Notes under the pieces: generated by a model
What the model was told of the DNA's origin: nothing
Database searches by the model: none
What the model saw: only the letters and a program-made list of their open reading frames with translations
Part shown: positions 5,030 through 56,776 of the stretch, piece after piece
Layout of the letters: each line of letters starts with the position of its first letter
Numbering within the stretch: the first letter of the stretch is position 1
DNA from: Dictyostelium discoideum
Lineage: Eukaryota
Direction: 5' to 3'
Assembly: GCA_000004695.1 (NCBI GenBank)
Contig: CM000154.2
Coordinates: forward strand, 3,648,001-3,712,000
DNA length: 64,000 nt
Translations under genes and position numbers: made by a program

Positions 5030-5961
5030 TGTTATATTTACGAGATGAAATGGTCACACTAAAAAAAAAAAAAAATAAAAAAAAATAAAAAAAATTTTTG
5101 GCAATCGAAAAAAAAAAAAAAAAATAAAAAGTGAAAAATAAAAATAAAAATCCTTTAAAATTTACTTTATCTGATCAATTGATGTGCATTTTTTTTTTTT
5201 TTTTTTCTTTCTTTCTTTACAAAGTTTTAATGTTTCTATTACTCTTATTTCTAAATATAGAAAATATTGTAAAAATGAAGTGGAATTAACAAAATATTAA
5301 TAAACGTTTTTCTCGGGAAAATTATAGAAAATAATTGGTTTTATAATCTTTTAATATATAATCTTAATTTAATCTTAAAATGGTGGTGACTTGTAAAATT
5401 ACGTTTTTTTAAACACGAATAAATTTAATAAAACAAAATAAATAAAAACAAATAAAAAAAATAAGAAAACAAAAAGATGTATTTATTTTTTATTTTTTAT
5501 TTTTTATTTTTTTACTTTTTTAAAATTATTATTATTATTATTTTATTTAAATGATATTATGTATAAATACCCCCAAATTTTAATTTTTAATTTTTATTTT
5601 TTTATTTTTATTTTTTTTTGATTTAATAATAACCTAATCTCTATTTGAATATCTTGGAAGTTTGGCTCTTTTTTCCTCCTAATTATTTATAATAAAAATA
5701 AAAATAAAAAAGAAGTTAATAAGTTTAGTAGTTTTTTTTATTTCCCAAATAAAATGGAAAAAAATAAAAAAATATAAAAAAAAAAAAAAGAAAAGAAAAA
5801 ATTGGTAATCAAACCTATTAGTATTTTCCTTTTTCATTCATTCACTTTTTTTTCTATTTTTATTTGTTTCTTATTTTTTTGTTTTGATTTATCCTTTTTC
5901 TTTTTTTTTTTTATAAAATAGTTTTTATACGTATCAAATTTATTAAAATAGTTGTACTTAC

Positions 5962-10236: not shown

Positions 10237-10886
10237 TATAGAATTTTAATAAATAAAAAAAATAAAAAAATAAAAAAATAAAAAAAAATTATTTAATTCA
10301 ATATTTTATTTCAATTTCTAATTTTTTTTTGTTATTTTAACTTCTGGAAATTGACATTTTTGTTTTTTTTTTATTTTTTTTTTTTTGGAGATTTTGGACA
10401 TGGTGATTTTTTTTTTTTTTTGGAACAGTTTGGTTTGATTATATTGTATTTTTTATCCAAGTAAGATATGATTTGAGGTTTCCTTTTGATCACAAAAGGA
10501 GCATGGCTTGTTGAAGGCTTTTGGTAGTGCTTTGAGTTCGTATTGCCAGAGTAGGTTCAAATGTGTGGGATGTCATTGTCCATATGTTGTTGCTACTCAG
10601 CTTTTTAAAATATGTAAAATTGTAACTAAAGCAATGCAACGTAACGAAAGTAAATGTAACGAAAGTGGTCAATTGTAATGTTTAATAATTTATTTAGGAA
10701 TTTAAATTCTCTTAATATTTATAAATTTAAATATATTTTTATTTAATACTTTTTAAGCATATAATTTCTTTATTATTATTAATGTAGGGGATAATACACT
10801 CGGAAGACTGAAGTTGGTACTGAGAATCGAACTCACGATCTTAAATTAGCGAATCTGACAAACCATTAAAATTCATTGGTCCATAT

Positions 10887-10960
10887 GGTCGGATGGTGTA
10901 GTCGGTTATCACGGTTGCTTTACACGCAACAGGTCTCGAGTTCGATCCTCGGTCGGATCA
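10887..10960 (+). tRNA. tRNA-Val (anticodon UAC), copy 1
   Basis: Cloverleaf: acceptor GGTCGGA/TCGGATC (one G-G mismatch at 5:68, one G-U), D-arm GTGT-AGTCGGTTA-TCAC, anticodon stem GTTGC/GCAAC with loop TTTACAC (U33, anticodon TAC 10921-10923, A37). Variable AGGTC, T-arm TCGAG-TTCGATC-CTCGG, discriminator A. A T5 run follows at 10965-10969. An identical copy lies 1400 bp downstream. Confidence 0.75.
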
Positions 10961-10964
10961 TATC

Positions 10965-12049: not shown

Positions 12050-12486
12050 AAAGTAAATGTAACGAAAGTGGTAAATTGATCTGTAATTATTTATTTAGGA
12101 ATTTAAATTCTCTTGATATTAAAATTTAAATATATTTTTATTTAATACTTTTTTAGGCATATAATTTCTTTATTATTATTAATGTAAGGGATAATGCACC
12201 CAGAAGACTGAAGTGGGTACTGAGAATCGAACTTACGACCTTAAAGAAGCGATTCTGGCAAACCATTAAAATTCGATAGTTAATATGGTCGGATGGTGTA
12301 GTCGGTTATCACGGTTGCTTTACACGCAACAGGTCTCGAGTTCGATCCTCGGTCGGATCATATCTTTTTATTTAATTTTCTTTTTTTAAATCTATCTTAT
12401 TTTTGTTCTCTGAGAAATTTGCTATTGATTCATGCAAGTTTCACCTATTTTTATTTTGGTTTGAGCATCTATATATATATTTTTTT

Positions 12487-45575: not shown

Positions 45576-45648
45576 GCCCGTTTAGCAAAGTTGGAATTGC
45601 GGCAGCCTTCTAAGCTGCAGGTCGTGGGATCGAGACCCACAATGGGTG
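45576..45648 (+). tRNA. tRNA-Arg (anticodon UCU) with atypical T-loop; T5 terminator at 45653-45657 and external B box at 45682-45690
   Basis: GCCCGTT-TA-GCAA-AGTTGGAA-TTGC-G-GCAGC-CTTCTAA-GCTGC-AGGTC-GTGGG-ATCGAGA-CCCAC-AATGGGT-G. The anticodon stem and T-stem are perfect, U33 is present, and the anticodon is TCT (45609-45611). The acceptor stem has two G-U pairs. The T-loop reads ATCGAGA (A at position 54) where the human tRNA-Arg-TCT T-arm is GTGGGTTCGAGTCCCAC. Downstream aGGTTCGATGtc matches the dictyostelid external B box (GGTTCGAATCC-like). Confidence 0.6.
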
Positions 45649-51375: not shown

Positions 51376-52825
51376 ACATATTAAAGGATTAACAATAATT
51401 TTTGTTAATGTTGATATATCAGTTGTTGAGATTTGATTTTTATTGAAATCAGCAAAAGATGAACTTGTATTATTGTTTACATTTTTATCTATTATTTTAT
51501 TATTTAAATTAAAGTTTATTATGTTTTCTGTAATTTTGTAAATAATATTTAATAAAATATTAATATTTTTTTTATTTAAAAAAAAAAAAAAATTATTAAT
51601 TATTAAGTAAAAAAAAAAAATTAAACATACTTAATATCATTTTATTTTATTTTTAATTTAAATTATTATTTAATTATTATTTATTTATTTTTTTTTAAAA
51701 AATATTTATATATATTAATATATTTTTTTAAGTAAAAATATATATTATTTTTATTATTATTATTATAAATTATAAAAAATATTATATAAACAAATAAAAA
51801 TTCTTTTATTTAAATAGTAACAACATCAATTAAATTTATTTTTATTTTTATTTTTTTTTTAATTTTAAAAAAAAAATTAAAAATAATAATATTTACATAA
51901 ATAAAATACTAATAATAAAATTATTATTATTATTTTTATTAATATCATTATTATTATTATTATTATTACAATAAAAAATATCATCATCAACCTCAAAAAT
52001 TAAAAATTCACATTTCAAATATTTAAATCTTTACTACCCACATTCTCTAAAAATAAATCAAACAATCCTAGTTTAAAAAAAAAAATAAAAAAAAAAAAAA
52101 AAATTATATATATAAATAAAAATTTAAAAATTTAAAAAATTTAAATAACAAACAAGTAATACATAAATAATAATGGTATATTAAAAAACCATAAACCTAT
52201 ATTTAAAAAAAAAATTATCATTATAATTATTATTATCATAATAATATTGGTATTAAAATCTTATACACAAAAGTATTTTTTTTTTTCTTTTTTTATTTGT
52301 TTTTTTTTTTTTAAAATTTTAAAATAAATAAAAAATTAAAAAAAAAAACAATAAATAATCTTATATATAGAATAAGTTAAAATGTTACCCCATGTAAGTG
52401 TGTGGGTTATGTTTGTTGTTTTTTTTTTTGTTTTGCTAGATTTTTTACATTTATAGGGTGTATGAAAAATGAAATTAGATTTAAGTGGGTGTGTTTAAGT
52501 GGGGGTTAGAATTTTGGTTATTGTATTAGGATTCTTTTGGTTATAGAAGGTGGGGGAAGTGGTTAAACTTTAAATTCAACAATTTCTCTAAATTGAAATT
52601 GTTGTTGTTATATTTAGATTTTTTATTTTTAATTAAAACTTTTTTACATTTTGTAGTTGTTTTAATATTATTTACATTTATAGTTTTTTTACACCATAAT
52701 AAATATTAACTTGCTTTTCAATTTTAATAATCTTTATCTTAATTTAATTTTTGATATTCCCAATACCTTTTTTGGTTTAAATTTTTTTTTTTTAAAAAAT
52801 TAATAAATAAATAAAATAAAATAAA

Positions 52826-54135
52826 ATGGACAGTAATTTAATTAATTGGCTAAAAAAGTGTTCTGAATCTATATTAGATTCTCTGATAATAATTTCAAGG
52901 AATGAAATATTTATATCAAAAGAAAATCTTATTGATTTTTGCAAATCAAAATGGTAAAATATATATATTTATGTTTAAATAAAAAAATAAATAAATAAAT
53001 AAATAAATAATTTTAATATTTATTAACTATAATTATAAATTTTAAATAAAAAAAAAACAAAAATTTAAAGTTATAAAAAAATTGGATTAGGTGAAGATCA
53101 ATTTAGATTATTAAAAAATGAAATATCAATATCATTAGAAAATCATTTTAGAAATGAAAATGAATTAATATTATATAAATATGAACCCGTTAAAGAAATA
53201 AATTTAAAATTTGAAACAACAATTAGAGAATTGATTGAAAATAATATAAAATTAAATCAAATGAGGTTTATTAAAAATAATAATGAAAATAATGAAAATA
53301 ATAATAATAATAATAATGAAAATAATAATAATAATAATGAAGTTAGAATTGATTTAAATAAATATATTCAAAATGGTAATGATAATAATAATAAAAATAA
53401 TAATATTAAAGAAGATTCAGAAATTCAAAAACCAAATAATGAAATTTTAGTTATTGAATTAATACCAAGAAAATGTGATTCCTATTTTTATTATGAAATT
53501 CCATTAATAATTGCAGGTTGTATGACAGCAAAAGAATATTCAAATTTTATTAAAACAATTAATAGAGCCTATAGTGGATATTGGATATTATTTTTAATTT
53601 ATTCTTCGTATGCAATTTCAATTTTAGCCATTGTAATAACAATACCATATTACAAAGCATTTCCAATTTGGTTAATATTTTTTGGTGCAATGATTTTATT
53701 TTCAATATTTCTTTTAATTTATAGATTATTTTTAAGAGTAATTATTAAAAAAAAAGAATTTTTTATTTTTATTTCTATTTAGTTTTTATTTTATTTTATT
53801 TTTATTTTGTATATTAATCAATTTTTAATTTAAATAATAATAATAATANNNNNNNNNNNNNNNNNNNNNNNNNNNNNNNNNNNNNNNNNNNNNNNNNNNN
53901 NNNNNNNNNNNNNNNNNNNNNNNNNNNNNNNNNNNNNNNNNNNNNNNNATAGAAAATTATTGAAAAATCAGTACCACTTGAATTTCATATTGTTTATAAA
54001 AAGAAAAAGTTCCCTCAAACTAAAAATACAATGACAATGATAATTCACTATTTTTATAACTCTAAAAATACAAATGTTACAAATAATATTTACAATGAAG
54101 AATCTCAAATGAAAATTAATGAAATTGATGTTTAA
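52826..54135 (+). CDS. Small 2-TM membrane protein, paralog A of a 3-gene tandem family: join(52826..52953,53071..53737,~53953..54135); intron 2 contains assembly gap 53849-53948
   Basis: Exon 1 MDSNLINWLKKCSESILDSLIIISRNEIFISKENLIDFCKSK(W), donor TG|GTAAAA 52954 (phase 2). Acceptor TTTAAAG 53070. Exon 2 CYKKIGLGEDQFRLLKNE...ELIPRKCDSYFYYEIPLIIAGCMTAKEYSNFIKTINRAYSGYWILFLIYSSYAISILAIVITIPYYKAFPIWLIFFGAMILFSIFLLIYRLFLR, donor AGA|GTAATT 53738. Probable exon 3 ..KIIEKSVPLEFHIVYKKKKFPQTKNTMTMIIHYFYNSKNT..* is homologous to the terminal exons of paralogs B and C. Confidence 0.55.
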
Positions 54136-54309
54136 AAAAAATAAATAAAATGATTAAAAATATTTTTGAAATTTTCCTATTGTTTTTATTTATTACCTTA
54201 AAAAAAATATATTTAGAATTTTTACTAAAAAATTAAAAAATTAAGTAATTGTGTGTTTAGGGTGCAATTTAAAAAAAAAAAAAAAAAAATTAAAAAAAAT
54301 TTTATAACT

Positions 54310-55492
54310 ATGGAAAGTAACATTATAAATTGGATATATAACAGTAATGAATTTATATTGGATATTTTACTATCTTTATCAAAGAATGGTTTTTATATAT
54401 CAAAGTCAAGTTTAAAAAAATTAATTAATTCACCAAATAAAATGTAACTATATTAAATTAGAAAAAAATAAAAAAAAAAAATATCTTAATTTGTAATTTT
54501 ATTTTTTTAAATATTTATAATAATATTTATATTTTATAAAATATTATTATTTATTAGTTTACTAATAACAGTTTGTTAAATTTTTTTTTTGGTAAAATAC
54601 TATTTCTTGAAATGATTTACCTAAAATTTAAAAAAGATATAAATATAAATTAGAAATTGAAAATTATTATATTTTAAAAAAAGTATTTGAAAATTATTAT
54701 TTTAATAGTTCAGAAAAAAGTGAACAAATTACATTAATTAATTTAGATTTTATAAATGATAAAGAAAAAATTAATACCTGTAATGTAATAAATGTAATAA
54801 TAATTAACAATATATGTTTAAACCAAAGACATATAATTAGAGTAACAGAAGAAAGTAGAATTGATCCAAATGGGGTTAAATATGAAATAATTCCAAAAAA
54901 TTATAAAAGCTATTTCGATAAGAAATTACCATTAGAACTGTCACATTTAATATCAAGTAATCAATATATTAATTTTATAAAATCTATTAATTCTGCTTAT
55001 AATGGTCATTGGATTAAATTTTTAGTAATTTTTTTTTATATTATTGGTTTAATGGTTTATTTAATTTTATTAAAAAAAAACATTTTACCAAATCAATCTT
55101 GGATTTTTATTGTAGTTTTATCCTCAATTAGTTTTTCATTAATTATTTTTCATTTAATATATTCACATTTAATTAAGGTAATTTTATTTTTTTAAAAAAT
55201 AAAAAAAAAAAAAAAAAATTGAAAAAATTAAAAAAAAAAAAAAAGATATTAATCATTTTTTATTAAAATTAAAAAAAATAAGTATATTATAATTAAAAAA
55301 ATAATATATGAATTTAATAAAAAATTAATATTTCAAATGAACTATAGTGATTTTCATAAATTTATTGAATTTAAATTGATAAGGAAAAAAAAAAAATTCA
55401 TTCAAACAAATGATAAAATAACATTGGAATTTGTTTATTACCCAAGAAATTCAATTAATAATAATAATAATATAAATGAGTTTAATTTATAA
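54310..55492 (+). CDS. Small 2-TM membrane protein, paralog B: join(54310..54443,54709..55177,~55348..55492)
   Basis: Exon 1 MESNIINWIYNSNEFILDILLSLSKNGFYISKSSLKKLINSPNK, donor AT|GTAACT 54444 (phase 2). Acceptor TTTTAATAG 54708. Exon 2 ISEKSEQITL...GVKYEIIPKNYKSYFDKKLPLELSHLISSNQYINFIKSINSAYNGHWIKFLVIFFYIIGLMVYLILLKKNILPNQSWIFIVVLSSISFSLIIFHLIYSHLIK, donor AAG|GTAATT 55178 (phase 0). Terminal exon DFHKFIEFKLIRKKKKFIQTNDKITLEFVYYPRNSINNNNN..* after acceptor TATAG 55347. Its conserved frame is offset by 1 nt from the phase-0 donor, so the junction is unresolved. Confidence 0.5.
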
Positions 55493-55698
55493 TAATCATT
55501 AGTAAATAAAAATGATTAGTTTAAAATTTATAATATATCAGGTGTTTTTTTATTTTCTTTTTTTAAACCCTTTTTTTTTTTTTTTTTTATTTTTTTTTTT
55601 TTTTTCTATTTTACCACTTTTTTTTTTTACCACTTTTTTTTTTTTCCAAATTTCCTCAAGATAATTTTATAATATAATTTACGTTTTAATTATTTAAA

Positions 55699-56515
55699 AT
55701 GGAAAGTAACATAATTACTTGGTTAAATAATTGTTCTCAAGAATTAGTTGATTCTGTTTTAGCATTATCCAATAATAGATATTTTATTTCTCAAAAGAGT
55801 TTGGAAGATTTTACAATTGAGCAAATGTAAGAAAAAAAAAATAATAATTTAAATAATTAAAATAATTAAAAAAAAATTTTATAATATATATTAATTTTAT
55901 ATAAAATTTAGATTTAACTATTCAATAAGTGTAGAACAATATAATACAATAAAAAATGGAGTTGAAGCATTAGAAATTATAAATGATGATTTTGATCAAA
56001 GAGGAACCAAAGTTGAGATAATATTTCATTATGATGGATTAAATGGTGTAAATAAATGGTATAAAGAATCAATTAGAAAAATAATTTCAAATAATATTAG
56101 TTTAAATACAGATTATGTTATAATTAATAATACAATGATAAAAGAAATTGAACCAAAAAGTAGAAAAATGTATTTCAATCCAATTCCACCAATTGAAATT
56201 TCTCACTTGTTATCAGATGATAAATATCATGATTTTATATTTTCATTAAATAGATCATATGGTCCATATTGGTATGTCTGTTCGGCAATAATTTGCTTTG
56301 GTTTAGCAGTTTTATTTTTTTTCTCTTTTATATTTATTAGTAAAGCTGTTGGTTTTTCATTACTATTTGTTTTTGGTATTTCTAGTGTTTGTCTTGGTAT
56401 TTTCTCATTCATTTATGTTAAATCATTAAGAGTATGTATTTTAATAATTTTAAAAAAAATCATAATTTATTATCTATTCAAATATTAATTTAAATAATTT
56501 ATTTTTTGAAAAAAA

Positions 56516-56583
<68 letters not shown>

Positions 56584-56776
56584 GTATAATATAATAAAAA
56601 AAAAAATTATAAAATTTAATAGATTACTAGAATCAAGTCAAATACCATTACATTTCAGATTCTTAAGAAAGGAAATAAATTTTCCTCAAACAGATGATAA
56701 CCTTACAATGGAAGTTTATTATGATTTTATGAAAAACAATGATTTCCAACAATTTTTATCTTCCTCAACCGTTTAA
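55699..56776 (+). CDS. Small 2-TM membrane protein, paralog C: join(55699..55826,55912..56431,~56623..56776)
   Basis: Exon 1 MESNIITWLNNCSQELVDSVLALSNNRYFISQKSLEDFTIEQ, donor AT|GTAAGA 55827 (phase 2). Acceptor TTTAG 55911. Exon 2 IFNYSISVEQYNTIKNGV...MIKEIEPKSRKMYFNPIPPIEISHLLSDDKYHDFIFSLNRSYGPYWYVCSAIICFGLAVLFFFSFIFISKAVGFSLLFVFGISSVCLGIFSFIYVKSLR, donor AGA|GTATGT 56432. Terminal exon LLESSQIPLHFRFLRKEINFPQTDDNLTMEVYYDFMKNNDFQQFLSSSTV* after acceptor TTTAATAG 56622, with the same 1-nt phase offset as paralog B. Confidence 0.5.

Follow-up and report, generated by a model that had tools for sequence, protein, structure and literature searches.

Introduction

Human GOLGA7/GCP16 (PDB 8HF3 chain B and 9OA6 chain B) is an accessory subunit of ZDHHC9 and ZDHHC5, and yeast Erf4/Shr5 (PDB 8HFC chain B; Pfam family PF10256, Erf4) is a subunit of the Erf2–Erf4 Ras palmitoyltransferase. 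GOLGA7 is S-acylated at Cys69 and Cys72. Two short amphipathic helices of GOLGA7 (α2′ and α3′) dip into the bilayer next to the DHHC enzyme—with the acylated cysteines shown in the first of them—and the RDYS loop, which follows β1, contacts the DHHC zinc fingers and is required for binding to ZDHHC5/9 (PMC12528901). Here we describe three tandem genes, designated A, B, and C, on chromosome 5 of Dictyostelium discoideum AX4, for whose products assignment to an Erf4/GOLGA7-like family is plausible but unproven. They lie on the plus strand of a window of 64,000 nucleotides (nt) (GenBank assembly GCA_000004695.1, contig CM000154.2, positions 3,648,001 to 3,712,000), and all positions given below are counted from the first nucleotide of that window.

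The window has a G+C content of ~20% and is broken by assembly gaps of 100 N at three places, including one within gene A. The three genes follow one another at ~1.4-kb spacing, and their products, of about 280–340 residues, are 27–32% identical across their full length in pairwise BLASTP comparisons (expectation value, E, 1e-20 to 1e-27), in agreement with the tandem three-paralog family described in a first-pass annotation of the window; a scan of the window for further copies found none. Explicit exon models, drawn up alongside three-frame translation, show one plan throughout: three exons, a phase-2 intron 1, and a phase-0 intron 2, with all junctions GT–AG. The first exons measure 128 (A), 134 (B), and 128 (C) nt, within the range originally given, and end in the phase-2 donor noted then. 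Likewise present in A, B, and C are the motif of the central exon (..IP.K..SYF..PL..[SH]L....Y..FI[KF][ST][IL]N..Y.G.W), which precedes two adjacent hydrophobic helices detected in a Kyte–Doolittle scan, and the core of the terminal exon (..[EH]F...[YR]K...F[PI]QT.[ND]..T[ML]). Although the family had first been reported as unrecognized, C (DDB_G0290151; UniProt Q54GI2) and B (DDB_G0290155) are already annotated, both as "hypothetical protein".

For comparison, the corresponding loci were fetched by synteny from D. citrinum (L001), a second, gap-free D. discoideum strain (L002), D. dimigraforme (L003), and D. firmibasis (L004). Across Dictyostelium species, the ratio of nonsynonymous to synonymous substitution rates (dN/dS) in the C-terminal halves was 0.015–0.055 for C, 0.18–0.29 for B, and 0.10–0.15 for A. 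These values are well under 1, indicating that all three genes are functional. The earlier view that all three exons are coding is borne out. A, B, and C are best explained as the products of tandem duplication, each a functional gene that encodes a protein.

Resemblance to Erf4 and GOLGA7

Searching 1.84 billion protein representatives with a profile built from A, B, and C recovered 13 family members, among them shorter dictyostelid paralogs, one rotifer protein, and one unnamed metagenomic protein; a homolog search with a profile of the conserved module added only P0023 and P0024. Five of seven remote relatives were found to match PF10256 at the same motif—P0018 with 41.8 bits, and P0016, P0019, P0022, and P0017 with E of 8.4e-5, 1.6e-4, 3.3e-4, and 7.8e-3, respectively. 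P0018, the only one to exceed the PF10256 gathering score of 29.3 bits, is tied to the window-family profile at E 3.1e-8. Furthermore, when the 12-sequence module alignment was used as a profile against all PDB sequences, GOLGA7 ranked first and second (E 5.6e-4 and 7.1e-4), and hhalign aligned the module with residues 22–56 of human GOLGA7 (35 columns; 66.7% probability; E 5.3e-5), the central part of the GOLGA7 sequence used being confirmed by the PDB match. The predicted family fold also contains the elements of the GOLGA7 fold, namely N-terminal strands, α1, two membrane-associated helices, and a C-terminal β hairpin. Each method is modest individually, and the weight comes from their agreement on GOLGA7/Erf4; A, B, and C are probably homologous to these proteins.

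Several observations weigh against this reading. In a Pfam scan of A, B, and C, nothing significant was found, the best result being a match of B to PF10256 (15 bits, E 0.024), with no match for A or C. Foldseek placed GOLGA7 chains first and second against the PDB, at nonsignificant E of 0.39 and 1.0, and the AlphaFold2 models, both calculated from one shallow 7-row alignment, have a whole-chain pLDDT (predicted local distance difference test) of 57.6 and 48.5. When the hhalign register is extended (GOLGA7 T22 corresponding to module position 13), the place of RDYS is taken by EIEP in C, EIIP in B, and ELIP in A; this E-[IL]-x-P motif is conserved within the family though it differs from RDYS. 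The acylated cysteines are not conserved either: helix 1 has none in A and B, and has C166 and C171 in C, although, with hydrophobic helices of full length, these proteins may have no need of a lipid anchor. A, B, and C have no known partner enzyme, unlike GOLGA7, and no DHHC gene is present in the 64-kb window; a literature search on DDB_G0290151, DDB_G0290155, and Dictyostelium together with Erf4 returned nothing relevant and no experimental data.

Many of these points speak for an alternative in which the likeness is superficial—a short motif and a generic helical hairpin in a dictyostelid-centred membrane protein of unrelated function. The scores of A, B, and C below the PF10256 gathering score, the shortness and moderate probability of the hhalign match, the Foldseek values, the divergence at RDYS and at the acylated cysteines, and the shallow alignment behind the structural models would all fit such a protein. 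However, four different methods rank GOLGA7/Erf4 first, the alternatives in each numbering tens to hundreds of thousands, P0018 both clears the Pfam gathering score and is linked to the window profile, and the sequence match falls in the β2–α1 segment, which is not a membrane segment. A superficial likeness is therefore regarded as unlikely, and homology to Erf4/GOLGA7 is preferred.

Splicing of Genes B and C

The first-pass annotation had reported that the conserved frame of the terminal exon in B and C begins 1 nt off from the only available AG, and had suggested a micro-exon, non-canonical splicing, or recoding. When all AGs from the exon-2 donor to the conserved core were listed in both genes, exactly one per gene proved to be in phase 0 with an open frame: 55281–82 in B and 56583–84 in C. 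The frame does start 1 nt after the AGs originally chosen (55346–47 in B and 56621–22 in C), but these are the wrong AGs, and the apparent offset arises because the true acceptors lie 65 nt (B) and 38 nt (C) upstream of them. The terminal exons, first described as short, are accordingly 210 nt in B and 192 nt in C, and, with the upstream AGs, all junctions in A, B, and C are GT–AG, stop-free, and in frame. The skipped exon-3 codons, 13–22 in number and rich in Y, I, K, N, and F, have a G+C content of 7.7% (B) and 2.6% (C) compared with 4.6–4.8% in the introns; being as AT-rich as introns, they were mistaken for intron by eye.

The splice junctions rest on comparative and annotation evidence, and both kinds support the upstream acceptors. 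In all 13 gene copies compared, from five genomes (D. discoideum AX4 and L002, D. citrinum, D. dimigraforme, and D. firmibasis), the junction is AG/TAT, with Tyr as codon 1 of exon 3, while the length of intron 2 ranges from 69 to 302 nt and falls in all three mod-3 classes. Mean pairwise identity is 82–93% in the exon-3 extension versus 48–57% in the adjacent 60 nt of intron, and in the cross-genome alignment of the gene C extension all five variable columns (5/5) are synonymous third positions, showing that the skipped stretch is under codon-level purifying selection. In addition, the product of the gene C model is identical over 279 residues to XP_635869.1 (DDB_G0290151; Q54GI2), independent NCBI models of C in D. 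citrinum and D. dimigraforme have the same exon 2–3 junction, and DDB_G0290155 (P0012), the AX4 model of B in public annotation, joins exons 2 and 3 identically, at ...SHLIK/YIIIKK.... Thus, intron 2 of B and of C is an ordinary canonical GT–AG intron, and there is no call for recoding, a micro-exon, or non-canonical splicing.

Two other accounts of the offset were tried and rejected. Alternative donors in B and C, with the GT one or more bases away, lead to stop codons or non-canonical dinucleotides, and a sequencing error in the homopolymer behind the KKKK run of B was discarded, the frame being the same on either side of the run.

Use of both AGs, with the downstream one giving minor, unproductive isoforms that are regulatory or targeted to nonsense-mediated decay, would be compatible with the acceptable contexts of the downstream sites (ctatAG and taatAG), and with the products expected from them: splicing of B at the downstream AG leads to an immediate TGA, reading ...LIK before the stop, and splicing of C leads to a frameshifted tail. 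However, the downstream site in B is not conserved, since D. dimigraforme has TG there and D. firmibasis has AA, with the frame open in both, the upstream AG in C is the first AG 3′ of the donor, and nothing calls for such an isoform; we consider this very improbable. Still less credible is decay of B and/or C to pseudogenes, with the inconsistency of frame reflecting real frameshifts. B is indeed the fastest-evolving of the three and is degraded in D. citrinum, where exon 1 was not found; however, B and C of AX4 have full-length open frames with canonical junctions, dN/dS is far below 1 in every gene, and B is intact in D. dimigraforme (a 295-residue model is called), with its exons conserved in D. 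firmibasis. Finally, a need at the exon 2–3 junction of B and C for a micro-exon, non-canonical sites, or programmed +1/−1 recoding, proposed from the 1-nt displacement, can be dismissed in view of the in-phase AG upstream in both genes, its retention in every copy compared, the purifying selection on the intervening codons, the absence of the downstream AG of B from two species, and the upstream AG already present in public models. Ordinary GT–AG splicing at the upstream acceptors is thereby retained for both genes.

Some details of the public models differ from those derived here. The DDB_G0290155 model of gene B is flagged as "partial": it begins upstream of the ATG, and its later intron-1 acceptor omits YKYKLEIENYYILKKVFENYYFNS (region 54444–54710). 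This segment is conserved (76% in D. dimigraforme and 65% in D. firmibasis) and has counterparts in A and C, so that the acceptor at 54635–36 is better supported than the public one. In D. citrinum, the site between the A and C orthologs (L001, ~5076–5824) holds fragments of exon 2 (query-piece residues 66–101) and exon 3 (residues 13–69), with no exon 1 detected and no gene called at that site; gene B thus appears degraded in this species. A single 438-residue model (KAM9995198.1) merges B and C in one assembly of D. cf. discoideum.

A 69-nt "intron" at 56272–56340 is cut out of exon 2 of gene C in newer NCBI models for several strains of D. discoideum (e.g., KAM9948037.1, 256 residues). This segment (GTATGT...TTAG, 25% G+C) encodes the first transmembrane (TM) helix of C, which the excision deletes. 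Its composition is exon-like, it is conserved between species at the protein level, and the models for AX4, D. citrinum, and D. dimigraforme retain it; the "intron" is probably an annotation artefact.

Gene A and the Assembly Gap

Gene A had been taken in the first-pass annotation as the consistent phase-0 copy, with an acceptor tAG at 53950–52 bordering the 100-N gap. In the four gap-free genomes, the true start of exon 3 lies 39 nt upstream of this tAG, the start hidden in AX4 being YRHLHRITGSFNR. In the gap-free strain L002, gene A reads ...TTAAGA/gtaatt...aaaaAG/TAT CGA CAT TTA CAT AGA ATT ACA GGT TCT TTT AAT AGA AAA TTA ATT GAA..., and the AX4 gap is accordingly expected to contain the junction AG/TATCGACATTTACATAGAATTACAGGTTCTTTTAATAGAAAATTAATTGAA. 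Moreover, AX4 is without one A after 53959, 11 nt past the gap (AAAATT-ATTGAA versus AAAATTAATTGAA in 4/4 other genomes), so that gene A as written in the reference is frameshifted. Since the true acceptor lies within the gap and this A is wanting, the "tAG/AAA" acceptor is fortuitous, and the agreement in phase seen with it was spurious. The missing A is most likely a contig-end sequencing error, although it may be a genuine strain difference.

Table 1. Features of the A, B, and C genes, with positions in the 64,000-nt window; a slash marks an exon–intron boundary.
Feature	Position	Strand	Remarks
Gene A exon 1	52826..52953	+	128 nt; ATG at 52826; phase-2 GT donor; conserved in four other genomes
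Gene A exon 2	53071..53737	+	Asn-rich insertion, Erf4-like motif, TM hairpin; ends AGA/gtaatt, phase 0
Assembly gap, 100 N	53849..53948	.	Covers 3′ part of gene A intron 2 with its true acceptor, and most of codons 1–13 of exon 3 (YRHLHRITGSFNR)
Gene A exon 3, visible part	53949..54135	+	Includes stop codon
Gene B (DDB_G0290155) exon 1	54310..54443	+	134 nt; phase-2 donor
Gene B exon 2	54637..55177	+	Starts at AG/A TAT AAA; YKYKLEIE.. conserved in L003 and L004
Gene B intron 2	55178..55282	+	GT..AG; 105 nt; 4.8% G+C; phase 0; AAG/gtaatt...ataAG/TAT
Gene B exon 3	55283..55492	+	210 nt including stop; first codon TAT (Tyr)
Downstream AG first chosen in gene B	55346..55347	+	Within codons TAT-AGT (Tyr-Ser); not conserved
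Gene C (DDB_G0290151) exon 1	55699..55826	+	128 nt; phase-2 donor
Gene C exon 2	55912..56431	+	Ends AGA/gtatgt, phase 0
Gene C intron 2	56432..56584	+	GT..AG; 153 nt; 4.6% G+C; phase 0; AGA/gtatgt...aatAG/TAT
Gene C exon 3	56585..56776	+	192 nt including stop; first codon TAT (Tyr)
Downstream AG first chosen in gene C	56621..56622	+	Within codons AAT-AGA (Asn-Arg)
Gene C Erf4/GOLGA7-like module	56132..56731	+	Residues 117–265, split by intron 2; TM hairpin ~residues 162–215 at 56267–56428

Neighboring Elements

A G/T-rich non-coding block at 52360–52600 (+) lies ~230–470 nt upstream of gene A in intergenic DNA that is otherwise >90% AT. The block is syntenic in four genomes with identities of 93%, 88%, 81%, and 78%, far above those of nearby introns, and has a conserved inverted repeat, CAACAATTTC...GAAATTGTTG. 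Its ACCCCAT box resembles the consensus of DUSE, an upstream element of Dictyostelium non-coding RNAs. Rfam and tRNA scans of the region at 52–57 kb gave no matches, and RNAalifold found no covariation support in the conserved upstream element. The block may have a regulatory role, or may be a non-coding RNA that is missing from the annotation. Elsewhere in the window, ARAGORN predicted two tRNA-Val(TAC) and one tRNA-Arg(TCT), at 10886–10961, 12286–12361, and 45576–45648, of which only tRNA-Arg(TCT) passes the Rfam gathering threshold.

Proposed Function and Significance

The proteins appear to be built of a helical N-terminal region specific to the subfamily, followed by what would be a divergent Erf4/GOLGA7 (GCP16)-like domain, in which a predicted TM hairpin, with helices long enough to cross the bilayer, takes the place of the short pair of membrane-dipping helices in GOLGA7. 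With an even number of membrane passes, the C-terminal hairpin stays on the side of the N-terminal strands, as in the models, and the residues that follow helix 2 are strongly basic (e.g., SLRYNIIKKKIIKFNR). From bilayer-spanning helices combined with a GOLGA7-like domain, we infer a possible partnership with DHHC enzymes: A, B, and C would be membrane-anchored, non-catalytic subunits that bind and stabilize DHHC-type protein S-acyltransferases, with anchoring via a true TM hairpin rather than lipidated amphipathic helices. Taken by itself, a function as DHHC accessory subunits is possible rather than probable. Considered as a whole, the locus finds its likely best explanation in ordinary GT–AG splicing together with Erf4/GOLGA7-like membrane proteins acting as DHHC accessory subunits.

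More tentative still is the broader proposal that dictyostelids hold an unrecognized, expanded set of Erf4/GOLGA7-like DHHC accessory proteins, with a TM hairpin in place of the lipidated helices and with the enzyme-contact motif replaced. Four distinct proteins of this family were seen in D. discoideum, and three more types in D. purpureum and D. dimigraforme; if the proposal is true, protein S-acylation in the social amoeba would be subject to diversified, paralog-specific regulation.

For annotation, the consequences are more immediate. The trio has no splicing or recoding anomaly and should not be pursued as one. Gene models have been corrected or confirmed for three D. discoideum genes, with a probable error of one base and a concealed exon start recognized at the AX4 gap, and a better exon-2 start is available for DDB_G0290155. 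In addition, a family annotated merely as "hypothetical" or "transmembrane protein" gains its first functional lead, as an apparent divergent, TM-anchored Erf4/GOLGA7 branch. If this lead holds, its members would be candidate S-acylation regulators for Dictyostelium research, and would offer a natural example of a TM hairpin replacing lipid-anchored helices.

Comparison with Known Systems

Shorter relatives of A, B, and C include DICPUDRAFT_156432, DICPUDRAFT_82455, and DICPUDRAFT_80796 of D. purpureum—the first two being on the same contig with consecutive accessions—as well as ACTFIW_002163 of D. discoideum and A0A816DLW3 of the rotifer Adineta ricciae. They share the module [IV]E[LI].P....YF....P.E[IL]..L[IM]...[EY]Y..FI..[IL]N, followed by the TM hairpin, FN..L, and a PL.F β hairpin, but have no counterpart of the M[DE]SN[LI]I.W region at the N terminus, which exon 1 and the first half of exon 2 encode. 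Unlike A, B, and C, the rotifer protein has a C-terminal zinc ribbon.

As regards yeast Erf4, relatives of the window family match PF10256, and P0018 does so beyond the gathering score, which A, B, and C themselves do not reach; Erf4 is, moreover, peripheral and without TM helices, unlike A, B, and C. With human GOLGA7, the family shares the β strand(s), the segment F..[KE].P.EL...I....[FY]......[LI]N..Y with α1, two membrane-associated helices, and the C-terminal β hairpin, all in the same order, and the two ends of the domain are predicted to face one side of the membrane, the basic (cytosolic) one, as in GOLGA7. Sequence identity to GOLGA7 is 9–14%. The family differs from GOLGA7 in an extra N-terminal region of ~115–170 residues, in the replacement of RDYS (residues 16–19) by E-[IL]-x-P, and in its helices, each of ~20–25 hydrophobic residues, which are predicted to form a full TM hairpin in contrast to the short amphipathic re-entrant helices of GOLGA7.

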